Source: Blasia pusilla (Eukaryota). Taken from it: a DNA stretch of 64,000 nt. The DNA is taken from the NCBI GenBank assembly GCA_050084515.1, contig CM114271.1, positions 48,546,001-48,610,000 on the forward strand, written 5' to 3'. Shown here piece after piece: positions 26,805 through 52,500 of the stretch (the stretch's first letter is position 1; each line of letters begins with the position of its first letter). A model generated the notes under the pieces. The model saw nothing but the letters and a program-made list of their open reading frames with translations. It was not told the origin of the DNA and made no database searches. The position numbers and the translations under genes are program-made.

Positions 26805-26950
26805 CATCTCGCACACATCCATCGTCCCGTGGGAACCACATCAAGAGGGGGGGGGTGATACATGACAAATGCCAACCTTCAGAACAACCATCACATATCA
26901 CATACCAACATGGTGGCTGCACCCCTTGCAGATCCGCACAACATACACCT
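26805..26950 (-). pseudogene. PHD finger at the integrase C-terminus of element C
   Basis: Across small frameshifts it reads LRCMLCGSARGAATMLVCD-GCSEGWHLSCITPPL...GRWMCARC, a C4-H-C3 pattern. Confidence 0.85.
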
Positions 26951-28053
26951 CAAGCTTGCCGGTACCGCTGCCAAGCTCGGATCCACTGTCCCGTCTATGT
27001 TCGGAAGATGACATGACGCACAATTGCGCACATGATCCTTCCAAACCATACCATCTCGTCCCTCCAACATGAGGACTCCGATCAGTAATACCTCACGCAC
27101 ACGTAGGATCGTGCGCCCTGCAGTGACATCTAGCATCGTGGGTGCCGCCTGTTGTCAATACACGTAATCTCCAAGATGAAACCTCCTAATCCCTAGATGA
27201 TAACCTCCTCCACGAATGGTCGCGTACCTCAATGTATCTCTATGGTGAGCAATAGCTAAGTTCTCAAAGGCCATAGGCATAATTCTACGAAAAACCTCCG
27301 CCCTCTGAGAACATACGTGTACCCACACATCTGGATCATCAAGATCTAACACCTCTGCCATGTCACGTCGAATCGCTGCAGGTAAATCTGGCTCTCTCCC
27401 AAAGAGCAAAAAGTACGGTGAAAATGACGCCAAGGATGCCTGCCGACTAAAGCAATAACCCAGAGCCAACCATGGTAATTGTAGGTCCCACTCCCTCAAC
27501 TATCCCTACTGCAAGCCATACTTGCACAATCCTCTCTTCACCGTCTGTACCACTCTCTCCGCCAACCCATCCGCCTAAGGATGATCTCTGGACGTGGTGC
27601 GGTGATCTATCAGCGCCTGATCACACAAGGCTTGAAACTCTCCCTTTAACTCGGTACCCTGGTCAGTCAACACCTCCGCCGGTGCACCAAAGTGACTAAG
27701 CACATGATCTAGAAATGCATAAGTTGTTCCCTTGCTCGCCTTGTCCGGTAGTGCCACCAACTCTATCCACTTGGAGAAATGCTCCACCATGACCAACACG
27801 TACCTATGATGACACCTCGTCAATGGCAAAGGTCTCGCAAAGTCTAAACTCCACCAATAACCTAAACCCATAATCGGCAAAGGATGTAACTGCGGAGTGG
27901 GAGCATTGAAGGATGCTCGCACTCTGTCACATACCATGCATCTGGCCACAAACTGTTGTACCCCAGTAAGCATGCCGTGCCACCAATACTAAATCTGGGA
28001 TAAGCTGTAAGTACGCTTCACTCCAAAATGTCCCAACTCCTCATAGGCATGTC

Positions 28054-31000: not shown

Positions 31001-33464
31001 GGTGACGTTGGGAGTTGGACCAGCTGAGGTGTTACAGCTGGCCGCCACGTTGTGTGAGCGTGGAGAGATGACTGCTTCTTGTTCAGAGGTAGTTGAGGAG
31101 GTGTTGGACTTGCCCTCAGAGCCAGTGCTCAAGACGTTCCCCACAGAGTCATGGCATGCAGCAGCGGCAAAGTTGGTAGATATGCCAGCTCGACCGGCCA
31201 TAGAGCGAGCAGTGGTGATACCTGGAGTAGTGTTACTGGATAACCAAGTTGGAGTATTTTTCTTGGTTAGTCCGACGTGGACAGTATATCACCCGCAGCG
31301 CGTCCTACTTGATTCGGGAGCGCAACCCTTGATGTTAGGGAAGGCGGCGTGTTTAGCGTTGGGGTTATGGAAGGCCGATATTGAGCCTTGTCCCTTCCAG
31401 ATACAGACCTCGATTGGGGGCGTGTCACCCACGCAATATATGACTTGACAGGAGATAGTTGTCAAAGTCCAGCCAGAGCATGCGACAGATAGTGCTATGG
31501 TGCACACACGTGCGATTACGACACCAGCTGAGACGTACGATGTGTTGGTGGGGAGTACAGTGTTATATCCCCTGGGATTCATCTTGGACTTCTGGGAGGA
31601 GACCGTTGCTTATCGGTCAGGGTGGCAATCAGGTGACGGCCAGATGAGTCAGTTAACCGTGCAGTTTGCGGGACGAGGTGGTCGATCATGAGGCGAGTCT
31701 GTGACCACGTTGGCGGCTTTCACAGATAGTGTTAGCTGGCCAGAAGAGTTGTTGGAGGAGAATGCACATGCGGAGGATGTCGTAGTAGCGGATAGTCCCA
31801 CGGAGTGACAGGCCATGGCGGGTGTCTCTTCCCATGTTGGCGAGACCTCTTCACCATTGTGGAGTACGACTCGAGAGCTATAGAGGAGTGTCAACGACCT
31901 CGTGAGGCAGGCGTGGAGTCATGCTTTTATTCCAGAGCAGCGAGAGTCACGTGGCAATCGGGTTCTTGGAGTGGAGACGTTTACCCCACTGGATACCACA
32001 CCCGTTGTGTGGCAGTGCCCAGAGGAGGGTGTTAGGGTGTTAGATCTCTTCGGAGGGATTAGCACGGGATTGGCTGCAGTATTGCAGGCGGGCATACGGG
32101 TGCATACCTTTATGTGGAGAGAGATGATACCGCGCGACCAGTATCATTACGTCACGTGGCGCCATTGGTCTAGAGGTATCCTGAGTTGTTGCCGATATCT
32201 GCAATACGGGGATATCAGCATACACTACCCGCCAACATCTCTTTGGTAGGGGCGCAGGATCTTGAAAGAGTTGGCACCATTCATTTGGTGAACGTGTCGT
32301 TGTTGGGAGACACTCGTGCATGTGTGATGACGATTGTGTATCAGGTGAGGTCCTGGTGGGGACCTGCTGTGTTATTAGATGCGGCGAGAGTTAGATCACG
32401 TGCCTATCGTCCACGACTATGGTGGACAAACTGATACCATGAGAGGTACTGAGTCAAGCATACGATGGAGTCCAGAGAGCACCACATCTCACAATGGATG
32501 CTATTTTGGGCTCAAGGCGTCGATCTCAAGTGGTGACACGGGATGATAGACCACCGTTGGCCATGGCCAATAGGGTGGGGGAGTTGAGGGCAGCCTTACC
32601 TACGTTGGTGAGCTTCCCAACATCCCATGCCTTTCGTCAAGGAGGGTCAGGCATGATTTGGGATGAGGTGGCCAGAGCATTGGAGGAGCCTACAGCATAT
32701 GAGCGCGAGCGCGCCATGGGGTTTGCTACCGGTACTACGGCGGTGCCAAGGATGATTGAGGCATCCCGGAGACAGGTGTTGGGGCAGGCAATGGACCTCA
32801 ACTATCTCACATGGATAGTCAGCCTAGGTATGGCTGAGGAGAGATGGATGTGAGTGTCATCCATGTCGTCACGTCCACGAGTTGGACCATTGCCTACAGG
32901 GTCTGTACAGGCATTGGCTGGGGGCGAGACGAGGAGAGATAGGCACCCATGGACTTCCTGGGACGTCGTTCAAGCAGAGAGTGCGAAGGTGGCCAGAGTA
33001 GCACATGTTCATTTTTTGGATGTAGAGCATAGTGTAGGAGGTCAAAATGGAGTGGCTGTTGCAGAGGTGGCTAGGGTTGCTACATAGCAACCAAAGCCAG
33101 AGGTTGCGTCCTCTCCAAGTGAGGTCACAATGGAGACTTGGGAGCCTGTGATAGGTCTCAAGTTGATAGGAGGAGAGCGAAGGTGAGTTCATAGGTTTCT
33201 GAGAGGGCATGTCAGTTGTTTTGCTTCAGTATGAGAGACTTGGGTACGCTGAAGGGTCCTGGCATACGGATTGAGTTGGCTAGTGATACGCCGATCTTTC
33301 GTCAACCCTACATGTATTCTGATATGAAGCAAGCCTTGATTTAGAGCAGGAGTCAGGACTTGTTGGAGGCAAGACTTGTGGAGTTATCACATGGGGAGTA
33401 TGCATCTGCCACAGTCATGCCGACAAAGAAGGATATGTATGGCAATTAGACAGATAGGCAGATG
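28054..33464 (+). mobile_element. Element B (subfamily 2), 3'-truncated, inserted into the integrase of C: A'-gag-protease-DNMT-start of RT
   Basis: Starts TGTCACATCTGGG. A' repeat 28054-~28545 has TATATAA at ~28328. Gag 29404-29808, CCHC knuckle CDCCHRYGHTRDMC ~30320, protease VLLDSGAQP ~31300, DNMT motifs 32030-32830, RT start PIFRQPY ~33290. Confidence 0.85.
32030..32830 (+). pseudogene. DNMT3-like C5 cytosine methyltransferase domain of element B (catalytic PC motif deleted)
   Basis: Reads VLDLFGGISTGLAAVLQAGIRV, LLDAARVRSRAYRPRLWWTN and ERERAMGFATGTTAVP..SRRQVLGQAMDL. The sequence jumps from TIHLV directly to NV, removing motif IV up to motif VI. Confidence 0.85.
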
Positions 33465-35437
33465 CATGCCAACCGGGCACCATCTCCTCATCACTCTCTC
33501 CGTGCCATCGAGCTCCTGTGTCGTCTCTCTGACTCGGACATGGGTTATGACTCAACCCATCCGCATCCTGGTTCAGCCGACCTAGCCTATGAACCACCTC
33601 AAACTCATACTCCTATAGTAATAGAGCCCACCTGGCAAGCTTTCCCGTAAGCTTGTCGGACTCCATCAACCACCTCAACGGCTGATGATCAGTGATAAGT
33701 GTGAAAGGGTTGTCAAATAAATAGCACCTGAAATGTGCCACGGCCCACACTACAGCCAAGCACTCTCCCTCAAAGGAGCTGTACTTCGCCTCTACACTGT
33801 TGTTCGATCGGCTCGCGTAAGCAACAATGAACTCCCTCTCCTCGTCATCCCTCTAAGTAAGCACTGCTCCTAGACCCAACATGCTCCAATCCGTATGTAA
33901 CTGGAATGGGCGACCCTTATCTGGTCTGTGTAAAATGGGTGAGGATGCCAACTTGTCCTTGAGTTCTTGAAATGCTTGCTCCACATCATCTCCTCACAAC
34001 CAAACCTGATCAAGTCTCGTCAAGAAGGTCAAAGACTTTGCGATCGCACTAAAATCCTTGACATACGGTCGATAGAAGTTCGCCAGTCGAAGAAATGCTT
34101 GGACTCGACTCACATCTGTAGGGCGTGGAATCTGCGCAGTAGCCTCTATCTTTGTCTGCTGAACGCCTAACCCACTCGGGTATATGGTGTGTCCCAAGTA
34201 CTCAATCTGCTCCTGAAAGAATCTGCACTTTCCTGGATGTAACTTCAGTCCATGTAATTGCAATCGCCGAAACACCTCCTCCATGTGTCGCTCATGCTCC
34301 TCAACCGTGGAACTGAAGATAAGAATATCATCTATGTAACATCGTACAAAATCCAGGCCATCTAGAATCCTATCCATCACTCTCTGAAACTCTGCAGGCG
34401 CGTTCTTCAACCCAAATGGTAAGAACCGCCACTGATACAAGAAATCTCTCCCGAACCAATCTATCCCCCATAATGTTATCTTCTCCCTGTCCTCCAACCT
34501 CATAGGAAGCTGATGATAGAGATCTAAAGTACTGAAGATCTTTGCATGCCCTACCACATCAAAGATCTCCTCAAGAGTAGGCATGGCGTAACGATCTGAC
34601 CTCGTCTGTCGGTTGATAGGTCGGTAATCTCCACACATCCGCCTATCCATCCAATTGCCATACATATCCTTCTTCGTCGGCATGACTGTGGCAGATGCAT
34701 ACTCCCCATGTGATAACTCCAGAAGTCTTGTCTCCAACAAGTCCTGACTGCTGCGCTGAATCAAGGCTCGCTCCATATTGGAATACCTGTAGGGTCGACG
34801 AAAGATCGGCGTAAAGATCCTTCTCATGTAAAAATAAAGAGTAGTAAAAATGGCACACCCGGCCTAAAACTCCACTCCTCAATCTACATCGGCATATCGA
34901 GCCTCGTCCATCCTGTGCTATCAAGGAATCTGGACGCTAGCACCCTAGTCCTATCTCACACACATACCAGAGAGGTGCTCCAACGGCCCATCATGAGAAA
35001 GATGATTTAGGAAAGCCATCTTCCTCTCTTATATAGGATTGGGATGAGCCAAAAGGCTCTTCCCCTAAAAATAGCCCTCCCCTTGGTAACCTGCGCGCAC
35101 AGGTTAGCAAAGGCGGGTGACCTGGTCAACAAGTCACCCGGTTGTGAAAGACCTCAATATGAAAGTTATTAGAAACAACGTTCCTAACACAATGGACCTA
35201 TCCTCAACCTCATCCGACAAAATGGGAAAAAGTTACACTCAAGATAGTCTGCTGGCTCCTACGCCCTATCCACAATGGATCTCGGCCTATCGGCTATCCA
35301 GATGTGACAACTTGACTAACGTGAGAGAGCATGTTCTCCCTTTGTTTGGCTCATTCTCAACTATATTTAGGAATTTGCTAATTTGGGTAAGTTCCTATTA
35401 AGAACATAGTTGACTTTCTACCTTTGAAAGTGGCCCT

Positions 35438-35956
35438 TGTCACGTCCTTTAGGATAGATCGGTGAGATCTAGTAGAGCGTCTTCAAGAGTAGTGGAGGAT
35501 AGGCCTAGGAGGTCGAGGATGACCTGCTGAAGCCCCGGGGAAACCTGAGAGAGCAGGTTTCCCCTTCGTTTTTGCTCATTTGGAACCATATTTAGGAACT
35601 TACTATTTTAGGTAAGTACCCTTTTGAGTATATGATCGATTTTCTATTTTTGGTGAGTGGCCCTTGACCTCCTACATCAGGTCAAGACCTAAAGAGGTGA
35701 CTTGGGAGAATAGGTTACCATGGAGAGAGCTTGGGAGAGGGGAGGGGTATATATCCCAAGGAGAGAGAGCTTGAGAGCTCATTCTCTCTTTGTTGAACCT
35801 CTTGGCATGAGGCGGCGGAGCTATGGTCCCTTGCCTTGTGAGAGTAACCCAAGCCTTTCATTAGGAGAGTGGGTTTGGTTTGACATGAGAGAGAGAGTGC
35901 ACACCTTTGAGAGTTATGGTATGAGATCGTGTAGAGAGAGATTGGATTTTACTTTA
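35438..35956 (+). repeat. Repeat A1 (5' terminus of element E)
   Basis: Direct repeat of 46481-46997 with roughly six substitutions and one GA indel by eye. TATATAT box at ~35748. Confidence 0.92.
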
Positions 35957-36660
35957 CAAGCCTCTCATTAGGAGAGTGGGTTTGGTTTGACATGAGAGAG
36001 AGTGCACACCTTTGAGAGTTATGGTATGAGATCGTGTAGAGAGAATGCGAGAATGAGAGAAAGAGAGAATGCAAGACAGAGAGAGTGAGAGAGCTTCTTG
36101 GGGGAGCTCACTGGTCACTCGCTGTTTTTGCAGGTTGGGGACCGTGTTCCCCGTTCAACGGCTCATGGGAGTGCTCATCGGAGCAAGGGTTGCTTGGATA
36201 GTTCTTTGCATTTGCCGATTTTTCGTGTGAAAGAGTGGCGCGCGGAAGCGCTGCCCAATTTTTGATAGGGATTGAGTATGGGGGCGGGTTGCCCCATGCC
36301 GATGCTTTCGGGAGAACCATGTCGCTTGCTGATTTGGATTTTTATAGGTTTTACATTTTTGTTGGGAGGAATCAATGCGGAAGCGCTGCCGAATGTTGGG
36401 TAGAAGAAAAAGACATTGGGCTTTACGACAGTCCCCGTCAGTTTTTACTCGAATGTTTGATTCCAAATAATTTTTGATACTAGCGTAGATCGTGAAGTTG
36501 TGCATGTTGTGCAATAAATAGTGCGCAATTTGGAGTTGTGAGCAAAAAGTTATGGTCAATCTTGCAAAACTGCCATTGCTAGGCGATTTTTAGGGTTAAA
36601 TTGTGCAAACCCTAAACCAGCCGCCATAGTGGCGGCGGCCGTCGCCGTCATAGTCACCGT

Positions 36661-36760
36661 CAACCGTCAATGGTCAACTTTCACCGTCAATGGTCAACCA
36701 TCACCGTTAATGGTCAACCATCACCGTCAATGGTCAACTGTCACCGTCAATGGTCCACCG
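36661..36760 (+). repeat. 20-bp minisatellite (TCACCGTCAATGGTCAACnn, about 5 copies) in the 5' leader of element E
   Basis: Tandem units directly visible. A shorter related array lies at ~59815-59878 in element G. Confidence 0.85.
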
Positions 36761-39700
36761 CCCGTTTTCCACCCTTGGTTGCCATTGCCGCCGTTACGGA
36801 GTGGAGGATCTTCCACAACATTCGTTGATTCTCGGACTTGCGTCGCCATCACGTACTTTGTTTTGGCGGCTATCGTCATCAACCTGTGATGGCATATGAC
36901 CTCCCGTTATAGTTTTTGAGTTTTGATTTCCTGCTGCTATGTTGTGATTGGTAGCCGCTCAACGACGATCGGGTACCGTGCCGTGACGCCCGTAGCCGCA
37001 ATGCGCCGCCGATTGCCGCGTCGTGCCGCTCGTGGCCGCACCGCACCATCTTGATTGCAGAGCCGCTCCGGCATTGTGGAGCAGAGTGTGGGTTTATTGT
37101 TGATTGAGGAGGGTATGCCTCCGAGTGCCGCATCCCATCATCGAGGGCCGTGTCGTTCGTAGCCGTTTCGTGCCGCGCACAACGCCGCATCGTTCCGCTG
37201 GAACTGCACCATCTATCGAGGAGTTTTGAGCAACGTCAATACGAGAGGAGTATGACTTGCTGATTGGAGGAGTTGTCTCCACGACTAAGTTGGGGTCAAG
37301 ATTCGCAGTTGCTAAGGATCGACATTGACATGTGTTCAAGTTACCCATTCTGGTCCTTTAGCATGCACGTGTGAGGGATTCTGGGATTTGGGTAGTTTAT
37401 TTGGGGATATTGGGTGTGTGGATGTTGAGAGCATCATTTATGTATGTGATTTAGGGGACATAGACCTGTGTGGGATGTCCGGAGTTGAGGGTAGGTTGTC
37501 AATGAGATGATAGCCTGGTCGATTTGCCGCACCACGCTGCTTATTGCCGCACGTTACATGTCTCGGGGAGGGAGAGTGTAGATCGAGTGCCACATGTTTG
37601 GGATGAGTGATTGAGGGATTACTCACGAGGCAAGAGTGATTGGGTGAGAAGGGCACGAGGGTCATCACGGTGTCCGTTCGGGACTTTGAGAGGCGAGGTG
37701 GTGAACCCGAGAGTAGCTCTAGAGGTTTTACCTAGAGTGGCGTGAGGTTCCGAGGGTCTTCACTTCAGGGACCACCTCGACCTCCTTCTGTGTCATCGTC
37801 AGACGAGGGGGAGGGTGTAGAGGAATTTGTGAGCACATCGCTAGACATTGTGAGTGGTCCTACCAGTTGGGCGTACGAGATAGACGACCGGGGTAGAGGA
37901 CCGCGTAGGTTTTTAGGTGTAGTAGGTACGATTGAGTTGCACGATTTCATAGCAGAGTTTAGGAGTTGGTGCGACTCCCAGCGGGCCAGGAACTCTAGAG
38001 AGTTTAACCCGTTTACAACATGGAACGGTATGTTCCAGCATTTAGAGGGGGCATCCATGGACGATTACCATGAGTTTTCCCACAGATATGCCCGGGAGAT
38101 TGAGGCATGGCGACTCTAATACGACCCACACTATGTGTCATGGACGGAGCCGTTCCTAGATGAGGAGGAGAATTAGGAGAGGCTACTTCCTCTTCCACTA
38201 GTGATGTTTTAGGAGGGGTTACTCGCACTGGAGCAGTTGCACCGTCTAGTCGGGTTTGTCCCACGTTCAACCCCGTGGTTGAGTTCTTTGCTGAGTTGAG
38301 GGCGAGCTACCAAGGGGTATGGACGGAAAAGTTGCCGAGCATCCACAACTTCTAGAGGCGCCCAGGTGAGAGTTTACGTGAGGCTTACACTCACTTGCGC
38401 CGTTTGATCAACGTCACTCAGGGGGTGACAGAGGCTCAGGCTATCCAGTCATGATACGCGATGTTGGACCAGACCCTGCGGCCACGGGTGCGGGAGGGGG
38501 TGCTTCTTATGAGCACCTCCCCTATGTTGAGAGATGTCTTTAGGACCGCCGAGAAAATTCAGCGCAACATAGCGGAGGAGAGCGTAGCCACCATGGGTTC
38601 TGGACGAGAGCAGTCGCGATTGGCTGCACCACCTATGCAACAACGTGGACTCCGAGATAGGTCAATTGTGGCACCACGAGCTCAGGGAGGATACCGGGAG
38701 CTCGTGACACAGAGACCTGCGCCTTCATATATGGCTCAACAGCAGCCGCCTACTATTACTTGTTAGTCAAGTGATGGAGCCCATCATCAGCGCCATTGCA
38801 CTCGTCAAGGTCATGGACGTATGCCTCAACATGGAGGAGGAGATGGTGCTGCACCAGGAGGTTATCAGTGTGACTATTGTGAGAGGTATGGTCATACACG
38901 CGCCAGGTGTTTCAATTTACATCCTGAGTTACATTCGGACCGAGGGCCAGAGAGGGCACCAGAGCGAGTAGCCGGTCCGGGTGGGCCTAGAGATTGTGCA
39001 CCAGGTGGTCCCGTTGGGGGACGAGGAGCTGGAGCTGCCCGACAGGGTGGTGGAGCTGCCCATGGAGGAGGTAGAGTACCACCACCTAGATGCGCCGAGG
39101 GAGACGCCGGACGTGAGGTTGGGATGGATGCTCAGATACAAGAGCTACAGGAGCAGATTGCCACTATGGCATTGAGGTTACCCTATGCCGGATCCATGGC
39201 ATCGACATCATATGGAGTAGCCAAAGCTCTGGAGGATCTTGGTTGGATGTGCGGGGTTGCCCAAATGGAGGACGCCATAGTTATGATGCGTGGAGCAGCC
39301 GTAGAGTTGGATCCACAACGAGGGGAAATCAGAAAACAGACTAGGCTTCCTTAGTCTTTCACGTTGTCCGAAGCGATGAGGACCCCATCGATGGGTCCTC
39401 ATCAAGGTTCCTTGAGAGCTCGTGATGTTGTTGGTGTGCAGGCATGGAGGGTGATGGGAGAAGCAAGTGCGATGACTTCTATTGTTGATGCTCAGGAGGG
39501 GCATGTGTCGAGCACATTGTTGGGGGCGGCCACCATTGTGTACCGCACTCCTTTATTTTATGCTTCCGATGTTATGACGTTGGGGGGTACGCCCGCCGAG
39601 GCTTTTCGGCTGGCCGCGTCGCTATGTGAGCGCGGAGTTGGAGTTCCTGCATCACGTTCAGAGGTGATTGCAGAGGAGGTGATGGACCTGCCCTTGGAGC

Positions 39701-40589
39701 GGATGCTCGGACCGTCCACGTCAAATTCATGGCAAGCTGCGGCTGCTAGGATGGCGGAGATGCCCGCTAGACCCGCGATAGAGCGTGCCATGGCGTCTCC
39801 TGGTGTTGTGTTGCTGGATAACCGAGGAGAGGTCTTCCTGTTGGTGAGTCCTGGAGGTAGAGCTTTTAGTCTGCATCGCGTCTTGTTGGATTCAGGAGCG
39901 CAACCCGTGATGTTGGGGAAAGCGTCATTTAGAGGATTGGGCTTGACGAGAGCCGATGTGGAGCGTTGTCCATTCCGGATACTGACATCCTTGGGTGGAG
40001 CGAGTACCACACAGTATATCACCCGACAAGAGGTCGTGGTGAGGATTCGCCCGGGACATCCTACAGATGAGTCCATGGTGCGCGCAAGGCGATAGTAGTG
40101 ATCGATGAGAGTCCACGACGTCTTGGTTGGTGGAGCAGTGTTATACCCAATGGGGTTTTCCCTGGATTACTGGGAGGAGTCAGCGTCCTACAAACCAGGA
40201 TGGCAGTCAGGTGATGGGCGCCTTAGCTCATTACCCGTTTGATTTACAGGTGCAGTGATCAAGCAACGGCCAAGAGAGATGGCGACCTTAGCAGCATTTA
40301 GCACTGCCATCACTTGGGCTAGTGATTTGATTGAGGGATATGTCCATGCATAGGATACTCTCGTTCTTGATATTTCTATGGAGAGGAGTGTTATGGTAGC
40401 TGCATCATTCCGTGGAGGAGAGGTGCCGTTGTGGGGCTCGATTGAGGAACTTTGACGATTGGCAGATGAGCACGTGCAGACCGCGTGGAGCGTGATGGGT
40501 CTGAGGAACCCGAGGTTGCAGGGAGTGCTACAATGACACCCTTGGATACCACACCCATTGTGTGGTGTATCCCGGGGGAGGGTATTTGA

Positions 40590-41530
40590 GTGTTAGATCT
40601 CTTTGGAGGGATTAGCATCGGGTTAGCTGCTGTTTTGCAGGCAGGAGTGCGAGTACAACAGTACCTGTATGTGGAGAGTGATGATGTTGCAAGGCGCGTC
40701 TCACTACGACATGTGGCGTAGTTACGCCTACGTTTTCCCGACTTATTGTCTGCATGCGCACTACATGGGTACTAGAGTTCCCTACCAAGGAATATTTTGT
40801 TCTTGGGGGCGCAGGACTTAGAGCAGGTAGGGACCATTGATTTGGTCATTGCCGGTTGGCCATGTCAGGTCCAATCGAGTGCTGGACGAGGCAGCGGGTT
40901 GGCGGACACACGGTCTAGGTTGTTTTGGGAGATGTTGAGGGTCTTACGGCAGTTGCAGGAGCACCAGTCTCGTTCTCCAGCCAATATTTTGGAGAATGTG
41001 CCGATCTTAGGAGACTCCAGGTCACGGGTGGTGACGAATGCTCATCAGGTGTGTGCGTGGATCAGCCCAACAGTGTTCTTGGATGCGCCAAGTGTAGGTT
41101 CTAGAGCCCATCTCCCGCGTCTATGATGGACCAACTTGGTGCCCCATGCGGTGTTACGGAGGGCGAGAGTGGAGCGCCCCTCCCATTTGTTAGTGGATTC
41201 CATTCTAGGTCCAGGTCGTTGATCACAGGCAGTGGGGCATGATGATCGACCACCGTTGACTGTGGTCAACAGGGTAGGCAAGCCACGGGCAGCCTTGCCC
41301 ACGTTTGTGAGTTTTCCCACTTCCTATGCATACAAGGAGGCCGCGCCTGGCTTGGTTTGGGATGACCAGGTTCAGCGATTAGTGGAGCCCAACGCCGACG
41401 AGAGAGAGCGAGGGATGGGATTTCCCACAGGAGTGACGGCAGTACCGTCAGTGTCAGAGGCATCACGACGCCATCTCTTGGGTCAAGCGACGGACCTGAA
41501 CTGCTTGACATGGATCCTCAACTTGGGAGT
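40590..41530 (+). pseudogene. DNMT3-like C5 cytosine methyltransferase domain of element E
   Basis: Motif I VLDLFGGI, motif II YVE, motif IV DLVIAGWPCQ, SRLFWEMLRVL, motif VI ILENV, motif VIII FLDAPSVGSRAHLPRL*WTNL, motifs IX-X ERERGMGFPTGVTAVPSVSEASRRHLLGQA. All are in one frame, the same frame as the start of the downstream RT. Confidence 0.93.
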
Positions 41531-44112
41531 GGCTGAGCAGCGTCGTATGAGATCGCGACAGATCATAGCGGTTGCGTTGGTGAGCCCCATGCCTACCGAG
41601 ACGGTGGAGGCAATGGCTGGGGGCGAGACCCGAGGAGATCGGGAGAGACACCCTTGGACTTCTTGGGATGTTTTGCAGGTATGCAAGGAGATGATAGCCA
41701 CAACATCGAGCATGGTTTCGGCCACTGCACGTGGAGGAGATTAGAGTTTGCAGTTGGCTGCAGGAGAGCGGCCGAGTGTTGTCGTTCGAGACAGGATTGC
41801 ACCATAGCAACCACCGATACCCGCGCCGGAGAGTCCTACCGTAGTCACGATGGAGACTTGGGAGCCAGATATGGGCCCTAAGTTGACAGGAGGAGAGCGG
41901 CGCCGAATACATCAGTTCCTCAGGAGTTGTAGGAGCTGCTTTGCGTTGAACATGGAGGATTTGGGTACGTTGAAGGGACCGAGGATCCGCATTAAGTTGT
42001 CGAGTGATACGCCGATCTTTCGACGACCCTACAGGTACAGTGATATGGAGAGGGCTCTGATTCAGAGTAGGAGCCAGGACTTGGTCAGAGCAGGACTAGT
42101 GGAGATGTCGCATGGGGAGTATGCATCTGCCACTGTCATGCCCACCAAGAAGGATGTGCATGGCAACTCGACGGATAGGCGGATGTGTGGGGATTACCGA
42201 CCTATCAATCGGTAGACGAAGTCCGATAGGTATGCCATGCCCACCCCTGAGGAGATCTTTGATACGATTGGTCACGCAAAGATCTTGATTCATTGATTTA
42301 TGAGCGGATACCATGTACCCCTATCAGATTGGGAGGACAGCGTAAGACGGCATTTTGGGGCATCGATCCTCACGGGAAGGATTGTTTGTACCAGTGGCGG
42401 TTCTTACCATTTGGGTTAAAGAACGCCCCGTCTGAGTTTCATAGGGTCATGGATAGGATCTTGGCTGGTCTGGATTTTTCTAGGTGTTATATTGATGACA
42501 TCGTAGTCTTTAGCACCACGGTTGAGGAGCATGAGCGACATCTAGAGGAGGTGTTTCGACGATTGCAATTACATGGGCTGAAGCTGCATCCAGGCAAGTG
42601 CAAGTTCTTCTACGACAAGATTGAGTACTTGGGTCATACGATATACCCAAGGGGCCTTGGTGTTCATCAAACGAAGGTAGAGGCTATCTCACGCATTCCA
42701 CGCCCTACAGATGTGAGCCGTGTTCGCGCATTCATGGGATTGGCGAACTTCTATCGGCGATACGTGAAGGGATTCAGTTCGATTGCGAAGCCACTAACCT
42801 TGCTAAAGGTGGATCACGAGTGGCACTGGGGGGATGAGTAGGAGTGAGCATTTTAGTTGCTCAAGGACAGGTTGACGTCTGCGCCCATCTTGAGGAGACT
42901 GATCAAGGGGCGTCCTTTCCAGTTGCACACAGATTGGAGCATGTTGGGGCTTGGAGCGGTGCTCATCCAACATGATGATGAGGGTAGAGAGTTCATGGTG
43001 GCTTATGCTAGCCGCTCGAACAACGTTGCAGAGGCGAAGTACAGCTCGTATGAGGATGAGTGCTTGGCTACGGTGTGGGCTGTCGCGCATTTCAGGTGTT
43101 ACTTATTCGGCAATCCCTTTACCATCATCACTGATCATCAACCACTGAAGTGGTTGATAGAGTCCGACAAGCTTACATGGAAGCTTGCGAGATGGGCTAT
43201 GTTGTTGCAGGAGTATGATTTTTCAGGTGGTACATAGACCTAGGACGCTCAACCAAGATGCAGATGGGTTGAGTTGTAACCCATGACCGAGTTAGCGAGA
43301 TGCGAATGGAGCTCGATGGCATGGAGAGAGTGATGAGGAGTCAATGCCAGGATGGCACGCGTTAGCCTATTTAGGCATGTTGGTTATGGAGAGCCAGAGT
43401 GTGGAGACTTCGATGACGAGGTCTAATGGAGAGTCCTTGGATCCCGAGGCCAGTGAGGAGACGAGAGGTGTCCGAGATATTCATGATGATGGAGTAGTCT
43501 TGGAGTACCTTCGTACTGGAAGAGTTGCGAGCACTATGGGTGCTAGAAAGTGAGATCGGATCCTACAGCAAGCCAGACGGTTCCGTTGGGAGGGGACACA
43601 TGTTTTGAGGGTTTGGAAGGATGGCAGAGTAAGCGTAGTGCCGCATCCTTTGCAGAGAGCACGACTAGTGCAGCATGCCCATGAGGAGTTGGGTCACTTT
43701 GGGGTGAAGCGGACGTACATCTTGCTCCAGATTCAGTATTGGTGGCGAGGCATGCATACTGACGTTCAGCAGTTTTTTGCCAGGTGCATGGTGTGTGATC
43801 GGGTCCGAGCATCGTTCAATGCTCCAACTCCACAGTTGCATCCATTACCGATCATGGGCTTAGGGTACAGATGGAGTTTCGATTTTGCAAGACCTTTGCC
43901 TTTGACACAGCGTCACAGTCGTTATGTGTTGGTGATGGTCGAGCACTTCTCGAAGTGGATCGAGTTGGTTGCATTGCCTGACAAAGCAAGTGAGGGAGTA
44001 GCTTATGCCTTCCTTTACAGAATGCTGAGTCATTATGGCGCACCAGGTGAGGTGTTGACAGACCAGAATACCGAGTTTCGGGACGAGTTCCAAGCCTTGT
44101 GTGATCAACCGC

Positions 44113-45371
44113 TGTCGTATAGTAAAATCAATCAGTATATAAATTCCTTCGTCATTAAATGTTAGATAGAATTTCATTAGTATTAAGTAAATTGGCTTAG
44201 AAAAACAAAATTCTTATGTTTAAACCTCTTTATGGTGCCTCTTTTATGCGGGCCCAACTTTAGAAAAGGAGGTAATAAATAAAAGATGACTTTATAAAAG
44301 TAAAGTAGTTGCTTTAATAAAAAGAAAAAGTAGTCTTGGTTGGTGGCTAGTTTGGAAAATATCAAGTGGATAAAAGAGGATATTTTGGAAGAGATAAGAG
44401 GAAATCTACTTGTGTCAAAATGTGATTGGTTAAGCCTTGAGAGGAAGCCATGTGGCACAAGATAAGATAAGCTCTATTTCGTACTCTTGTGGATCCCTTG
44501 TGAGTATATAAAGAGGAGGAACCTTCAAGGATTCATCACCTTCTATTCCACATCTTGAGTCTCTCGTGTCTCTCTCGAGTGTATGTCTTTGGGATTGCTT
44601 GCTCTTCCAATGAGAGTGGATCACCCCTCTTGGGAGAGTAACTTGATCATGGTCTATTCTTCGAGAGGTTTCTAGAGTGTGGTGTGTGTGTGTGGAGATG
44701 AGAGGTTTGTCACCTTAGAGGAGTTTAGTCATACTAAAATAGTGGATGTTTTGGCTTGTTACTTCCCCAATGAGAGTGGATTATCCCTCTTGGGAGAATA
44801 ATTCCGCCAAAATCCATTCTTGAGGAGAGAAAAGAATATCTATCAAGCATGGATAGGGGTGGAGCACGAGTTGTGTCCGACTTTCCTTTCCTCAATCCAT
44901 ATCATGTCAAAGGTACTTTTTGTAGATAGACACTGGTTCACTCGATATTTAGTTTATCACTGTGGGGAAGCGTTCATGAACCAGGTCATGCAATCTCCAA
45001 CTCCGGTGATTCTTCCTATCGTCACATATGGAAGGACATGGGATTGTACTTTATATGTCCTTATATAGCGATCCATGGATGTCAATAGGCCTGCTCAATT
45101 AGGGTTTAACACTAGTTGTGCTATCTTCCTCGTGTACAAGCGTAAAATAGTTTATAAGGATTTTATAGCTAGGAATTTCGGGGTCCGATGTTACAAAGAA
45201 GTGATCGCCTCGGCACTTCCATTTGTGATACCTGTCGTGAGAGAATGGAGAGTCTACATCATAATTTTGTATTGAAAAAGGAGAACTTTTTAGAGAGTTC
45301 ACCTTGCATCGACCGCATCTACCGCAGCTAGAAGGCCCGCCCTTGCTCGAAGAAAGACTCTCGACACGACA
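44113..45371. mobile_element. 1.26-kb solo-LTR-like or mini element inserted in the integrase of E
   Basis: Termini TGTCGT...ACGACA. It splits the integrase peptide CDQ|ALINHRTTSRDHP. 4-bp TSD CCGC/GCGC with one mismatch. AT-rich, non-coding, TATATAAA at ~44506. Confidence 0.8.
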
Positions 45372-46029
45372 GCGCTGATCAACCACCGCACGACTTCGCG
45401 AGATCATCCCGAGGCGGATGGATTAGCGGAGAGAGTTGTGCAGACGGTGAAGAGGGGTTTACGCAAGTATGGCTTGCAGAGAGGTCAGCTAGGAGATTGG
45501 GACATCCATTTTCCATGGTTGGCGATGGGATACAGATTCAGCAGGCATGCATTCTTAGCGTCTTTTTCACCGTACTTGCTACTTTATGGCCGAGAGCCAA
45601 ATTTACCTGTGGCCATTCGTCAAGATGTTGTGAGGTGCTGGACCTTGATGACCCAGATGTATGGGTGCGAGCATGTTCTCAAAGGGCTGAGTTGTTTCGA
45701 AGAGTGATGCCCATGGCGTTCGAGAACTTGGCGATTGCGCAACATCGAGATACGTTGAGGTATGCGACTATTCGGGGTGGTGGTTATCGACCAACTATCC
45801 GGAGGTTTCATCAGGGAGATTATGTCTACTTGCGTGACGGCGGCAAGCGGCGTTGGATGTGATGCAGGCGCACTATCCGAGAGTGCGTGACGTTTTGCCA
45901 TCCGGTGTTCTCTTGCTGGAGGGACGCGATGGTATGGTATGGAAGGACCATGTGCGTAATTGTGCACCATGTCACCTTCCTAACATTGATAGTAGAGTGG
46001 ATCCGAGCTTAGCAGTAATTCCTGCAGGC

Positions 46030-46160
46030 TTGCGTTGTATGTTGTGTGGTGCGGCCACGATGCTAGTCTGTGATGGTTGTTCGAGAGATTGGCATATGGC
46101 ATGTGTGACGCCACCTCTCACTAGGATTCCTCGGGGACGATAGATGTGTCCTAGATGTAC
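46030..46160 (+). pseudogene. PHD finger at the integrase C-terminus of element E
   Basis: Reads LRCMLCGAATMLVCDGCSRDWHMACVTPPLTRIPRGR*MCPRC, a C4-H-C3 pattern with the conserved Trp mutated to a stop. Confidence 0.88.
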
Positions 46161-46350
46161 ATAGAGGAGATACTAGGTAGGTTTTGATCCCGAATTTTTC
46201 TCTGACATGGATGACATGAAGGCGACTAACGATGGGGCCACATGAGCACCCGGACTTCTTGCTCTTAGCGTCCGAGAGATGTATGTCATGGTAGGTAGGG
46301 ATAGATGGCTATCTGGAGTTAGAGGGACCTAACCACCAGGTAGGGGGGCG

Positions 46351-47125
46351 ATTGGAGATATTTTGGTTCTTCTTGTCTCGTTGTTTGGATGCCATGAGTT
46401 AGCAGGGGATCGTGCGTGTTTGTGTGTGTGTTCGATAATAGCGATGTATGTTGTGTAGCGATGTGTATGCGCACGACAACTATCACGTCCTTTAGGATAG
46501 ATCGGTGAGATCTAGTAGAGCGTCTTCAAGAGTAGTGGAGGATAGGCCTAGGAGGTCGAGGATGACCTGCTGAAGCCCCGGGGAAACCTGAGAGAGCAGG
46601 TTTCCCCTTCGTTTTTGCTCATTTGGAACCATATTTAGGAACTTACTATTTTAGGTAAGTACCCTTTTGAGTATATGATCGATTTTCTATTTTTGGTGAG
46701 TGGCCCTTGACCTCCTACATCAGGTCAAGAGCCAAAGAGGTGACTTGGGAGAATAGGTTACCATGGAGAGAGCTTGGGAGAGGGGAGGGGTATATATCCC
46801 AAGGAGAGAGAGCTTGAGAGCTCATTCTCTCTTTGTTGAACCTCTTGGCATGAGGCGGCGGAGCTATGGTCCCTTGCCTTGTGAGAGTAACCCAAGCCTT
46901 TCATTAGGAGAGTGGGTTTGGTTTGACATGAGAGAGAGTGCACACCTTTGAGAGTTATGGTGTGAGATTGTGTAGAGAGAGATTGGATCTTACTTTAATT
47001 GGAGATATTTTGGTACTTCTTGTCTCGTTGTTTGGATGCCATGAGTTAGCATGGGATCGTGCGTGTTTGTGTGTGTGTTCGGTGATAGCGATTTATGTTG
47101 TGTAGCGATGTGTATGCGCACGACA
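46351..47125 (+). repeat. B1-A2-B2 block at the 3' end of element E
   Basis: B1 46351-46478, 2-nt spacer AC, A2 46481-46997, B2 46998-47125. Preceded by purine tract AGGGGGGCG (46342-46350). Confidence 0.92.
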
Positions 47126-49578
47126 CCCTTGATCTTGTAAAGGAGGTCAAGAGCCAAAGAGATAAGGTGTGAGTATAGATTTATGTGGAGAGAACTTGGG
47201 AGAAGGAAGAGGTATATCCAAAGAGGGAGTTTTGAAGCTCATTCTCTTTTTTGAACCTTTTGGCATGAGGCATTGGAGTTATAATCCTTCATGCCTTGTA
47301 ATTAATCCAAACTTCTTATTAAGAGAGTGGGTTTGGCTTGACTTGAGAGAGAGATAGAAATTGTGTGAGAGATTGTAATGCCTTTGATTTACAAAGAGAG
47401 AATGAAGGAATGAGAGCTCTACAATGCAAGAGCTTGATGGTTGTTTGTTGGTTTTGTAGGTTGGGGACTGTGTTTCCCATTGAGTAGTTCATGGGAATGC
47501 TCACAAGAGCAAGAGCCGTCCCATTGTGTACGTCATTGGAGTGGTCTTGATTTACAAAGAGGTAAGGGTTTACCTATGACCATTCGTTACAATGCGAGTT
47601 AGTTATTGAATCTCAAGAATCTGAATGTATGGACATGAGCATGTTCTCAACGGGGTTGACTTGTCTTGGAGTGTTATATACCCATAACGTTCAAGAATTT
47701 GATTATTTCACATCATCAGGATATGTTGAGGTATGAAAATATTTGGGAAGGTGATTATTGACCAAAAATCTACATAGAAGTTCCATCGAGAATACAATCT
47801 CTACTTTCAGTAGACGACCCTCACAATATTGGATGTTATAGCAAGGTGCGCTATCTTCAAAGTGCATGAGGTGTTGCCATCTATATTTAATGTTCTCATA
47901 TTGGAAGGAAGTGATGTTATGGTTTGGAAGAACCATGTGCATAACTTTGCGCCATGTCACCTTCCGAATATTGATGGTACAATTGATCTAACCTTAACAA
48001 TTAGATGCTACTATTGTTAAGATTGCTAACAATTAGATGCTACTATTGTTAAGCTAGTTATATATTGTATAGATTTTCCCGTAGTAACAATAGAAGCTAG
48101 TTATATATTGTATAGATTTTCCCGTAGTACAACCATTCAACCACCATGCTACTCTATGGTGGATGTTTGAGAGGATAGTATATGGCATGTCTAACGCCAC
48201 CTCTCATGATCAGTAGTGTTCTTCAAGGACTATGGATATGCCCCAAACGTAGGTAGAGTAGGTACTAGATAGTCATAGATCTAGACTTGAGTTAATGATA
48301 TGGATGATATGGATGATAAGAAGACGACTAACGATGGAGCCATATGAGCACCTGACCTTTTTGCTCTTAGTGTCCTATAGATGTATGTCATGGTTGGTAG
48401 GGATAGATGACTATTTAGAGTTAGAGAGACCTAACTAGGGGGGCGATTAGAGATATTTTGCTACATAATTGTCTTAGTATTTAAATCACATGAGTGTGTA
48501 TGATATGTAGTGTGCATGTGCTTGAAGGCAATGCCAATCATGTGTGTTGTGTAGCATTGTGTATACGCATGATATCATAAGAAAAATATCTTATGTCATT
48601 TTGGACAAGTCAACACTAATTACATTAATGCATTTTTTAGCAATTGTCAATTGACAATGAGCACATGATTAAAGATAATTTTCAAGGTTTGGGATTAGCT
48701 TTATTAAAATAAATAGAAGTTGACCCCCAAATGTTAACTCATTAAGAACCCAAGTTTGTGTCTAAAGGACTCTTAATTTCTCACAATTAGATCAAATCAT
48801 TCTTGAGTCTAACCATAGCCCTATTTTCTAATATGGTTATGGTTTAATAGTGTGTATTGAATTAGATTTTGGCCATGCAAGTTATAAATCGACCATACAA
48901 TTAATTGTTTTGAGTTTCTCCTCTTAGAATCCCTCACTAAACTTGACATCCAAATCACTTGTTTGGTCATGAAAACACTTATCAACTAGGTTATCATATC
49001 ACATAGTGTCTACACACAACAATCAATAATCATAAAGTAGATTGACAGTATTTTTTTTGGAATGTTGCAAGAGATTGATATTTTCAATGACAGGATGCAA
49101 GTAGAGTAGCTTTTCAAGTAGTAGACTGATTGTCACTCCCTCATAAGATAAGCAAGAGATTCAATTGTAGCTAATGCAATGTAAGAAACATGGTTCTGTT
49201 TCTTCTACCTTGGTGCTCTCATCTATTGCATTCTTGTGCAACACAAGTCACCTTTGGTCCAAGTTTGCCTTTCCCCTACTAGAATGCAATAGATCGCATA
49301 TATTTTGCATTAAAAGAACTCTATCCCCTAAAAGTATTCTAAAGATGAGATAGAATAAAGGATAAGGTTTCTTTAAAAAACTTAGACACTTATTGATGCA
49401 TATGTTGAAGGGATCACATAGTCGCTTGGGTTTGGCATTACACAAGATTACAACCTACTTTGGTAGAGTTGGTCATCTTCAACTCCAAATGAATCAAGTG
49501 GTGAAATGGATTGTGATGGAAATGACACTCTCTCCTTGCAACCATATTCTCAATCCAAGACAAGACTAGGATCCCTTT

Positions 49579-52500
49579 TGTTGTGTGCATCCATATCGTT
49601 ACACAATCCACATCGCTAGTCACATCTACACAACATATCATACCAATCTTTCTAACACATCGGTAGATCCACATACAAACAAAATACACTCGTGCCTATA
49701 CATCAAGACCACACAACTTCCTCCCTAGTTGGCAGTGGGGTCTCCCTATGGCTAACTCCAATAACACATATTACATCTACCAGACATGACCTACAACCTT
49801 ATACATATCTAGCACCGTTGGTGTTGTCATTTCCGCAACATCTTCCAACACATGCTTGATCCCACGCGTTCCACGGAAGCCGGGTTAAAATATTTTATTT
49901 TAGATCCATCTCACCTATCTCTATCTAGAGATATCAATATATCCGTATGTTTTCCTACAACATTGCACCTAGCTTTCATGTTTATCAAAATCTAACACTC
50001 AGATCCTCTTCCAGATGTTGCCACACAATAAGTGTGGTATGCAAAGATATCAAGTCTCCACTCCAAGAGCATAACCATCACCTCAGTATGTCTACTCCAA
50101 GATACAAGCACGGTTCCACACCTACCTTACAAGCTCGTTTGCTACTCAACGCTCGTACCTAGCAATAGTGAAGAGGTCTCACCAATATGCATGCAGGAAG
50201 AAACATCTGCCATGGCATGGCCCTCCGTGGAACTATCCCCTATCAAGATGTCATATGTAGGTGCGTTCCCCTCCATCAACTCTCTTGGCAAGCTAACAAC
50301 ACATGTGAATATTGCCAATGTGGTTATTGTATCGTCATTTGGTCGACCATCATTACGCCGTACAAACCACACTAGTAATTGGTTCACTTGTCCATCACCT
50401 AATCATCATCCTGGCCGATAAGACATTGTCTCTTCCTAGATATCAAGGATGAAACCAAGGATACAACACCTTGCTTCCTACGAACACATCATATGAATCT
50501 ATTGGTGTTGTAATCACACCAGTGCGCACTACGGCATTATTTGATGCAATTATGGTTGGAGTTTGGCAACTTACTTCTGTTGAGTCATGTACTATGTGGA
50601 TGATACGCCCCAAATAGATGTTTGTATCTAAAAGGAAAAGGCTCAATATGGCCTTTTTGTAATCCCAATGCCAAACACCCCGCCTTTCCTAATATCCAGG
50701 GTTGTCCTCTTGAATCAAATAGGACACGCTAGGGGTGATACACTATACCTGTGGGACTAACCAAGCAAAACACTCCAACTTGATTATCCAAAAACACCAC
50801 AAGTGGTGTCACTATAGCTTGCTCCATGGGTAGATCAAGTTGGCATATCCATCAATTTCGTCATTGTAGCCTGCCAAGATTGAGAGGGGGGACATCCCGA
50901 GCACATGCTCCGAGGGCATGTTGATCCACCATCTCCTCAACAACCACCTCTAAAAAAGAGGGAGTTACCTCTCCACATTTACACAAAGTGGTAGCTACTA
51001 AAACATCTCTGCTGGTCCAACTCCATGGCAGAAAATAAAAGAGTCTGACTCACCCTAGTGGCCACCACTTGTCACGTCTTTTAGGATAGATTGGCAAGAT
51101 CTAGTAGAGAGCCTTCGCAGAAAGTGGAGGACAACCTCAAGAGGTCGAGGATGACGTGTTGAGGCCATGGATAATCTGAGAGAGCAGGTTTCCTCTCCAT
51201 TTCGCCTCATTTGGAGCAACATATAGAAACTTACTATATATGGTAAGTTCCCATTTTGAGTATAGTTGACTTTCCACTTTGGGAAATGGCCCTTGACCCG
51301 CTACATGGGGTGAAGAGCCAAGGATGTGACCTGCAAGCATTGGTTACCATGGAGAGAGCTTAATTGGGAGAGGGAAGGGGGTATACCTCCAAGAGAGAGC
51401 TTGAGCTAGCACATACAAGGCAAGGAGGAGCTATGGTCTTCCTTGCCTTGTATGTGTAACCCAAGTCTCTCATTTAAGAGAGTGGATTTGGTTTGACATG
51501 AGAGAGAGAGAGAGAGAGTTCACCTTGTGGGAGCTCTAATTAATTGATTTATTGGAGATATTTTGGTACTTCTAGTTTCGATGCCATGAGTTAGCATGAG
51601 ATCATGCGTGTTTGTGTGTGTGTGTTTGGTGATAACGATATATGTAGCGATGTGTATGTGCACAATACACTTGTGGGCACCATTGGTCATCTAAGCATCA
51701 TAAATGGTGTATGAATTGCCTTCGACAACATAAATGAATTGGGAAATTTTGGCTTGTGGCCCATTGGTCCCCTCTTGTGGGTCAATCTCAACCCCACCTT
51801 AGTGTGGCTTGGTCAATCTCCTAGCACCCTTAGTCACCACCGCCGCAACCTCTATTTGAGTTGGATTGCACATAAATCTCAACGAGTGTAATTTCATTCC
51901 AAATCCTCACATGATGTAGAGGCTAGAGCTAACATAGGTACTCTCAGCTCTGTTTCCATCATTGGTTGTGTCATTGACATAACAACAATCCTCAGCTCCA
52001 AGTGATCGATACGAGTGAGGAGCATCCTCCATCTCCTCTGATTGGTGGTGGAACTCTACCATCTCGGTCCTCAACTCCTCGATCTCCACCAACTCTCTTG
52101 CCTCAAGGCCCTCGGCCTATTTTTAGACATAGCTCTTAGTGAAGATCAAAACACCTATCCCTAGTGCAACCATATCGGTGATAATGGTCATACTATAAAT
52201 TTGGTGGAGCCATCCTAGGTGGCTCATGAGCAATCGAAGGCACCCTCAGACCTCTACCATATTGTGGGCATTCCCTCTGCCTATAGGCCCACCACACATC
52301 TAAGAAGCCAACATTGGTCCATGTTGGCCAACAAATGTCGGTACGGGCCGTTGCCTCATAGGCTCATAATATCCGCCTTGCTCTCTGGGCACACCAACCT
52401 GCTCTCGTGGTATTGGTGCATGTTGGGGCACTTGTGGGGCTACTGGCACTCAAGGACACCTCAACTCCTAGGGAAATCCTATGGTCATAACTTGCTCCTC

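Follow-up and report, generated by a model that had tools for sequence, protein, structure and literature searches.

Retrotransposons with long terminal repeats (LTRs) that carry chromatin-reading or DNA-methylating domains are known in several forms. The chromodomain of chromoviruses directs their integration (Gao et al. 2008, as cited), and the PHD finger is stated, in the excerpts available, to be a common accessory domain of retrotransposons, with the Chlamydomonas elements REM1 and Gypsy-7a_cRei, CR1 long interspersed nuclear elements (LINEs) and cnidarian fusions as examples. DNA methyltransferases (DNMTs) are encoded by the EpiLTRs/DAM-LTRs of Cymbomonas and Euglena, which according to the accessible part of their description combine a DNMT4-related DNMT with a chromodomain and a DAM that Pfam can detect (Fernandez-Moreno et al. 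2026 preprint, 10.64898/2026.05.21.726589), and by the streptophyte Gypsy-DNMT3 family, KnitGypsy-Dnmt3 (de Mendoza et al. 2018, PMC5890265). The latter is the family closest to the one treated here, and is compared with it below by its description, not by the K. nitens sequence. The word 'PHD' occurs neither in the available text of that article nor in its three supplement files (the figure image falls outside this statement), the term 'streptophyte Gypsy-DNMT3' is taken up by later papers with no mention of a reader domain in their available parts, and a full-text literature search found no publication in which a retrotransposon DNMT is paired with a PHD of the integrase. In this work we analyse a stretch of 64,000 nt of Blasia pusilla (GCA_050084515.1, contig CM114271.1, 48,546,001-48,610,000, forward strand), hereafter the window, in which an 11.7 kb Ty3/gypsy LTR retrotransposon, element E (35440-47125), almost certainly also encodes a DNMT3-like cytosine methyltransferase, and in which 46036-46158 is, with near certainty, a PHD finger at the C-terminus of the element's integrase. 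Pfam and tblastn give the order of domains along E as gag, a protease (PR) region, a C5 DNA methyltransferase, reverse transcriptase (RT), RNase H (RH), the H2C2 domain and core of the integrase (IN), an SH3-like tail and the PHD.

The finger is directly visible in the window. Translated on the plus strand, 45838-46180 ends in LRCMLCGAATMLVCDGCSRDWHMACVTPPLTRIPRGR, a stop, MCPRCT and a second stop; all eight C4HC3 zinc ligands are kept, the invariant tryptophan of the family is replaced by TAG, and the first loop is four residues shorter than in relatives. With the stop read through, PF00628 scores 37.7 bits on it (E 2e-9, cutoff 24 bits), and 40.6 bits on the second open reading frame (ORF2) of L038, an intact relative from a metagenome. 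The full C4HC3 pattern is found only once in the 64 kb by a six-frame regular-expression scan. The same finger, with two frameshifts, is present in a second copy of the family, C (~26801-26945, minus strand), and a third copy, H, retains an AT-rich remnant (48137-48247, plus strand) with 38% identity to a reference protein over 37 residues. The original prediction, drawn from the letters of the window, had placed a C4HC3 PHD after the integrase of E and C and a remnant in H, at the position where chromoviruses carry their chromodomain. Translation, PF00628 (the HMMER check it had proposed) and tblastn bear this out, the finger sitting past the integrase core and the SH3-like C-terminal region, i.e., at the chromodomain position; no chromodomain model of Pfam matched in the pieces of E or in the intact L038 ORF2.

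E itself is dead, carrying several stops and frameshifts besides a 1.26-kb insertion in its integrase, and its PHD is a pseudogene copy. Related proteins, however, are plentiful. A protein search with the integrase tail and PHD returned 45 proteins, including those of Marchantia polymorpha, Calypogeia fissa and Sphagnum fallax, with up to 77% identity; 32 of them have the full PHD pattern, 27 of these being of bryophyte type (out of 38 bryophyte-type homologues). A profile search of 1.84 billion representatives with the same region gave 11,572 matches at E<=1e-3 and 393 clusters at E<=1e-30; counts for the wider clade refer to the best 150 of the 11,572 matches, with hosts named for a few matches only, and 139 of the 150 have the full pattern. 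The clade spreads over bryophytes, Chlorophyceae and many metagenome contigs. The finger is terminal in the bryophyte-type homologues, 25 of the 27 ending 1-7 residues past the last cysteine and the other two 14, and four proteins (P0019, P0027, P0032 and P0033) carry RT-RH-IN-PHD, or part thereof, in one open frame. Searching with the DNMT half instead yields gag-PR-DNMT proteins of ~1230-1330 residues from the same organisms, which end exactly where the RT-RH-IN-PHD proteins begin. The idea of PHD elements lacking a DNMT, raised by P0027, P0032 and P0033 (no PF00145), was accordingly rejected, these being ORF2-only products that start at the boundary between ORF1 and ORF2.

Of the 80 metagenome loci fetched (L001-L080, some of them the same element from different assemblies), two are intact, L037 and L038. 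The latter has a 1369-residue ORF with protease and DNMT and a 1047-residue ORF with RT, RNase H, integrase and PHD (residues 990-1034), both in the same frame and separated by a single TAG. The codons after this TAG are CAG TTA in L038 and CAA TCA in L037, which we take to match the CAR-YYA context of leaky plant-virus stops. The equivalent TAG of E is probably ancestral and possibly leaky, and its conservation, together with the CAR-YYA-like context, suggests stop read-through with DNMT made at Gag-level abundance. As to selection, the ratio of non-synonymous to synonymous rates (dN/dS) of the PHD is 0.04-0.05 between L036/L037 and L038 (7 non-synonymous and 18-19 synonymous differences), that of the adjoining integrase being 0.03-0.04; these are the only pairs used, deeper ones being saturated (dS >1 or undefined). 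The low ratio indicates that the finger is maintained in lineages still replicating.

The finger had also been said to pair with the methylation writer of the element, in the manner of animal DNMT3, whose methyltransferase is coupled to the PHD-like ADD domain. The pairing is found throughout: the methyltransferase of E (PF00145, 44.8 bits at 40776-41126, with PCQ and ENV motifs visible in the ORF) lies within the same LTR pair, a DNMT stands directly upstream of RT in all 22 metagenome loci that reach the RT start with at least 1300 nt upstream (no testable locus is without it), and 29 of the 33 representative proteins that extend 1000 residues or more upstream of the PHD contain the same DNMT, the other four fitting ORF2-only lengths. 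The solved chains nearest to the DNMT of the family are DNMT3A/3B/3C (E 1.7e-8). In the window's family, however, this pairing holds for the element and not for the protein. DNMT belongs to the first reading unit and PHD closes the second, ~1000 residues away and with the TAG between, and since they are in different reading units they are not one module. The analogy with ADD failed on the same grounds, the finger lying at the far end of the polyprotein, behind an in-frame TAG in intact relatives, and also on its own composition: only the PHD, PHD-1st_NSD and PHD_2 models of Pfam match the finger of E at E<=0.01, with no ADD model among them, and the family finger is a single C4HC3 unit of 45 residues, without the composite GATA-like plus PHD-like zinc module next to a methyltransferase. 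Unlike the DNMT3-type ADD domain, it is therefore neither ADD-like nor attached to the DNMT.

What kind of PHD this is was judged from profile, fold and histone-contact residues. The PHD profile, built from 21 sequences of the family, gave matches to 91 different solved sequences, at the top CHD4 PHD1/2, KDM5B and KDM5A PHD1, PHF12, MLL3/KMT2D, DPF3, PHF21A (BHC80), ATXR5, WSTF, UHRF1, BAZ2A/B and AIRE, with E-values of 2e-17 to 1e-8 to readers of unmodified H3. All PHD chains among the best 60 profile matches come from this reader group, and there is no ING, BPTF or TAF3 chain among them. The AlphaFold model of the relative P0003, with a predicted local distance difference test (pLDDT) of 64-80 in the finger, predicts the cross-braced PHD fold and superposes in Foldseek on the PHDs of ATXR5, BAZ2A, UHRF1, DPF2/3, BHC80 and KDM5B at 2.0-2.4 Å over 45-51 residues (for ATXR5, template-modelling (TM) score 0.75 on the target, 2.2 Å and 41% identity). 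Over all fold matches to unmodified-H3 readers, TM is 0.58-0.76 on the target, the root-mean-square deviation 2.0-3.0 Å and identity 36-47%.

Contact residues were mapped by profile alignment to KDM5B PHD1, for which the available text of PMC4225485 gives L325, P347, G349 and W351 as contacts of H3A1, D328 as that of H3R2, D308 as hydrogen-bonding unmethylated K4 and E321 as binding T3. The Ala1 pocket is well kept, both in the 27 bryophyte-type fingers (L in 21, P in 27, G in 22, W in 27) and in the 139 representatives (107, 126, 114 and 132, respectively), as is the Arg2 aspartate that follows the third cysteine (25/27 and 127/139), which is present even in E (CDGC). The residue two before the histidine is glycine in 25/27 and 130/139 of these fingers, so that no cage aromatic is seen. 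From these features the finger looks as if built to hold the free N-terminus of H3, a prediction made from sequence.

In the wider clade the finger may be followed by more. At least 250 residues come after the PHD in 63 of the 150 best representatives, and 52 of these 63 share one extension, named hosts of this branch being Haematococcus lacustris and Chromochloris zofingiensis. The model of P0190 (pLDDT 81.3) resolves the extension into a five-stranded barrel at residues 223-278, with weak Tudor matches in 3/10 proteins, and a class-I S-adenosylmethionine (SAM) methyltransferase fold at 402-579, close to METTL5 (Z 12.9), type I HsdM, M.TaqI (Z 12.4), M.BseCI and CamA. The consensus of the extension (alignment A2) contains the motifs DPWxGxG and SPWF/SPPF, and D12 adenine-methylase matches below threshold (PF02086, E 0.002-0.18) occur in 6/10 extension proteins; when A2 was run as a profile against PDB sequences, integrase and PHD matches dominated and gave no information on the extension. 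The extension is thus predicted, largely by modelling, to be a Tudor-like barrel plus an amino-methyltransferase-like fold that most resembles N6-adenine enzymes. Of 136 tails, however, only 27 keep a strict SAM-binding signature and only 21 a strict motif-IV signature, so many of these methyltransferase-like tails may be inactive. The DNMT of the extension branch is placed after RNase H and before the integrase. Among the fetched proteins, for which part of the selection used a query that contains a DNMT, 105 have the order RT, DNMT, PHD and one has DNMT, RT, PHD. The window's own family is without the post-PHD extension. Two domain orders therefore coexist in one clade, most algal and metagenome relatives (P0106, P0084, P0089 and others) having DNMT between RNase H and integrase and bryophyte-type elements (E, L038) having it before RT; a tail after the PHD was also seen in the chlorophyte-type P0041, P0144 and P0195.

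The explanation we prefer overall, with chances that we would call even, is that the integrase-fused PHD serves as a chromatin tether in active relatives of E. Gag-PR-DNMT would be translated first and RT-RH-IN-PHD only via read-through of the in-frame TAG, after which processing would leave the PHD on the integrase. By analogy with chromodomain-directed integration, the finger would tether the integrase to chromatin, gripping the free H3 N-terminus by the Ala1 pocket, the Arg2 aspartate and beta-strand pairing. Having no methyl-lysine cage, it may prefer nucleosomes without H3K4 trimethylation and so lead integration away from active promoters. The DNMT would be a separate product, able perhaps to methylate the newly inserted copy or the DNA around it, but not physically guided by the PHD in the window's family. 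The mechanism originally put forward, i.e., that the element targets chromatin unmethylated at H3K4 and marks its own insertion, is only partly supported.

Several points weigh against this explanation. The equivalent of D308 is alanine in 19/27 bryophyte-type fingers and aspartate in only 10/139 representatives, that of the T3-contacting E321 is alanine in 24/27, and the family has Ser-Arg where KDM5B has Asp-Asp. As none of these is conserved, selectivity for unmethylated K4 is unsupported by the best-mapped template, KDM5B being the only template of this result and the acceptor positions of BHC80 and AIRE lying outside the mapping. The supposed likeness to PHDs that read the unmodified H3 tail thus stands for profile, fold, Ala1 pocket and Arg2 aspartate, and falls at the K4 acceptor. 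The lack of a cage presumes that the cage tryptophan of H3K4me3 readers stands two residues before the histidine, a position supported by a statement on W32/W238 in the available text of PMC4225485. Taken as a whole, the P0003 integrase tail is poorly modelled (mean pLDDT 56.9), histone binding by the finger is predicted from likeness of sequence and fold, and the estimate of selection rests on few lineages, as only 6/80 metagenome loci keep the 125 residues plus PHD uninterrupted. Insertion sites say little as well: the only readable one is that of E, in a transposon-rich island, and of the 38 metagenome loci with 5 kb or more of downstream sequence only 2 have another family copy in the downstream flank.

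The loss of the K4 and T3 contacts of KDM5B alongside conserved Ala1 and Arg2 determinants is what a more general nucleosome tether would show, i.e., a PHD that binds A1-R2-T3 of H3 whatever the state of K4, or that reads a modification of R2 or T3, and only raises affinity for chromatin. UHRF1-type PHDs, which are among the nearest solved ones, are titled as binders of the unmodified H3 N-terminal tail, in keeping with such a role. The strict glycine two before the histidine, however, fits a closed, cage-free surface, and steric exclusion of methyl groups can yield a preference for unmethylated K4 without an acidic acceptor, according to the discussion of KDM5B in the available text of PMC4225485; we consider a general tether of this kind unlikely. 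A guide of the writer, with the PHD working in ADD-like manner with the methyltransferase(s) of the element and directing or licensing DNA methylation in the unprocessed polyprotein or the pre-integration complex, would account for the constant company of DNMT and PHD (22/22 loci, 29/33 long proteins). In most fetched relatives, moreover, DNMT directly precedes the integrase (the 105 proteins of the query-biased set), and in relatives with the order RT-DNMT-PHD a methyltransferase-fold domain follows the PHD, so that reader and writer can share one polypeptide. It is quite improbable nonetheless, for in the window's family DNMT lies upstream of RT, before the TAG and ~1000 residues from a finger that matches plain PHD models only, and strict motifs are rare in the methyltransferase-like tails.

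Some PHD-like fingers bind non-histone partners, and the finger might instead be a zinc module for multimerisation or DNA binding of the integrase, or a binder of a host factor. The basic Ser-Arg where H3 readers are acidic would agree with this, as would the fact that histone binding is a prediction, but zinc binding alone would not call for the observed conservation of P-x-G-x-W, the leucine of the pocket and the Arg2 aspartate, and all nearest structures are H3-tail readers; we give such a role little credence. That the finger is an artefact, be it cysteines so spaced by chance or an exon of the host beside a transposon, could be suspected from the broken copy in the window, but is refuted, with next to no probability left to it, by the single frame that finger and integrase share in intact relatives, by the 393 representative clusters that span integrase tail and PHD, and by the low dN/dS. 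With these alternatives weighed, a chromatin tether on the integrase remains our preferred reading.

One may think further, to the whole clade as an epigenetic toolkit of green-lineage Ty3/gypsy elements, in which a DNMT3-like writer of 5-methylcytosine would always be paired with an integrase-fused PHD, and the chlorophyte branch would add the Tudor-like barrel and the amino (N6-adenine-type) methyltransferase-like domain. Docking of the intasome on H3K4-unmethylated nucleosomes would fall to the PHD, and the methylation of the new copy would then be set by the methyltransferase(s) that the element itself encodes, making these elements the PHD counterpart of the chromodomain EpiLTRs. As a whole this is a speculative picture, and we think it unlikely to be right in every part. 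DNMT-carrying retrotransposons are a recent, actively studied case of parasites manipulating host epigenetics, and should their DNMT always require a histone reader as its partner, they would offer a natural system for the coupling of integration site choice and DNA methylation, with the 45-residue finger and its mapped candidate contact residues as a testable module. There is a practical side too. The Marchantia gene models P0004, P0005, P0006, P0013, P0015 and P0023 are element fragments annotated as 'PHD-type domain' hypothetical proteins, P0006 resembling a chimera of integrase tail and PHD joined to a piece of a neighbouring DNMT, and such fragments, of which bryophyte gene sets contain many, inflate the counts of chromatin-reader genes.

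The features of E and of the two other copies with a finger are collected in Table 1. Within E, zinc-finger matches of Pfam in gag are weak (38767-39354) and the protease assignment is taken from relatives.

Table 1. Features of element E and of copies C and H, in window positions unless a locus is named (P, homologous proteins; L, metagenome loci).
Feature	Position	Strand	Evidence or remark
Left target-site duplication of E, CCCTTG (6 bp)	35434-35439		lies in an older related LTR
5′ LTR ('A' repeat) of E	35440-35956	+	98.6% identity over 517 nt to 46483-46997
Decayed gag, including a zinc-knuckle-like stretch, and protease region of E	37895-40503	+	tblastn with P0048 residues 9-845
DNMT3-like C5 cytosine methyltransferase domain of E	40515-41672	+	tblastn, P0048 residues 858-1243, 61% identity
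In-frame TAG between gag-PR-DNMT and RT-RH-IN-PHD units of E	41742-41744	+	after ..GGD, position as in L037/L038
Separating TAG in intact relatives	L038:5083-5085; L037:4661-4663		corresponds to window 41742-41744
Reverse transcriptase and RNase H of E	41844-43222	+	PF00078 83.8 bits, PF17917 124.9 bits; tblastn
Integrase H2C2 zinc domain and catalytic core of E, interrupted by insertion	43554-44114	+	PF17921 57.9 bits, PF00665 41.3 bits
Unrelated AT-rich insertion in E integrase, 1.26 kb	44115-45372		5-bp duplication CGCTG at 44110-44114 and 45373-45377
Integrase C-terminal SH3-like region of E, frameshifted	45354-46035	+	three tblastn pieces; beta strands in P0003 model
PHD finger (C4HC3) of E	46036-46158	+	TAG 46141-46143 at conserved Trp; 4-residue loop deletion
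pol stop codon of E	46162-46164	+	one residue (Thr) past last zinc ligand pair
'B' repeat before 3′ LTR of E	46351-46478	+	96% identity to 46998-47125
3′ LTR ('A') of E	46483-46997	+	pairs with 35440-35956
Second 'B' repeat of E	46998-47125	+	layout A-internal-B-A-B
Right target-site duplication of E, CCCTTG	47126-47131		matches 35434-35439
Copy C, integrase to PHD, 5′-truncated	26801-28063	-	P0027 residues 611-1028, 66% identity
Copy H, decayed integrase C-terminus and PHD remnant	47570-48247	+	tblastn

Alignment to the LTR places the left flank of E at positions 103-227 and the right one at 222-457, their overlap being the duplication, and both are ~76% identical to the LTR of E. Joined, they make one older LTR, which indicates that E inserted into an older related LTR, whose two parts span 35318-35439 and 47126-47354 of the window. 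E is the one complete copy in an island that takes up ~26.8-60.3 kb of the window and is made of fragments from a single Ty3/gypsy family. At least seven family fragments were seen there, with an inverted junction at 33457-33482 and, separating two pieces of a decayed minus-strand copy, an LTR-like piece on the plus strand (51057-51673). Self-nesting, i.e., that the family targets its own kind, could be proposed from this clustering, but was rejected as a general rule given the 2/38 metagenome loci mentioned above. Positions 1-25000 of the window have lower GC content and intron-like structure and are without family copies; an ORF at 3160-3648 gives the impression, and only that, of part of a membrane-transporter gene.

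An intron, as the 1.26-kb block in the integrase might be thought to be, is ruled out by three observations: the 5-bp duplication at its ends, DNA copies without the block (copy C is contiguous there, and a DNA contig joins 44108 directly to 45376), and the lack of any RNA joint across 44115-45372 in three RNA read runs. These are raw-read runs whose species label is the same as that of the best-matching DNA run. RNA depth over the block is 20-49, far above that of the coding parts of E, indicating that the block is part of a separately expressed repeat. On the interior of E there are 650, 824 and 715 reads in the three runs, nearly all of them 95-99% alike, and only 14, 14 and 21 are at least 99% identical to E, so that the transcripts must stem from close relatives rather than from E. 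Depth is 22-59 over 45676-46350, covering the PHD region, and first mates are overwhelmingly on the minus strand, consistent with sense transcripts under the usual convention for stranded libraries.

Compared with other copies in the DNA run X1, E shows A>G at 53 and T>C at 29 places, against G>A at 13 and C>T at 11 (82 vs 24 places). Such an excess of A/T in E where other copies have G/C is a signature of C-to-T decay. Changes of R to W, Q to stop, W to stop and P to L were observed in the metagenome copies. Decay is dominated by C-to-T and G-to-A, which is consistent with deamination of methylated cytosines.

Among known systems, the description of KnitGypsy-Dnmt3 in the available text of PMC5890265 fits best: it is likewise a Ty3/gypsy element, its polyprotein includes a DNMT3-like domain encoded without introns, its repeats follow A-coding-B-A-B, its hosts are streptophytes (here the homologues are from Marchantia, Calypogeia and Sphagnum), and its copies are decayed and probably silenced. 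In the E family the DNMT precedes RT, behind gag-PR, and the in-frame TAG comes before RT-RH-IN-PHD. As in chromoviruses (Gao et al. 2008, as cited), a domain of histone-reader type ends the integrase after the SH3-like region and a steering of integration may be proposed; unlike theirs, a chromodomain for H3K9me, the reader here is a PHD, predicted to take the H3 N-terminus. Next to solved readers of unmodified H3 (KDM5A/B PHD1, BHC80/PHF21A, AIRE, CHD4, BAZ2A, UHRF1, ATXR5), the finger has the same Ala1 pocket and Arg2 aspartate and likewise no aromatic at the cage position, but it differs by the absent acidic K4 contact of KDM5B, by Ser-Arg for Asp-Asp and by its fusion to the integrase of a retroelement. 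In Gypsy-7a_cRei the PHD is listed before the integrase, unlike in the E family, and for this element, REM1, CR1 LINEs and the cnidarian fusions the available excerpts state no pairing of PHD and DNMT, which the E family has. The chlorophyte relatives come near to the EpiLTRs as described in the accessible part of the preprint, in that they join a DNMT, a PHD of histone-reader type and an amino-methyltransferase-like fold within LTR retrotransposons, but their reader is a PHD plus Tudor-like barrel, their DNMT is DNMT3-like and their second methyltransferase-like domain, which the window's family lacks altogether, is only weakly DAM-like. Transposons with PHDs and Gypsy-DNMT3 elements were thus both already known, and the E family is a variant that joins the two.

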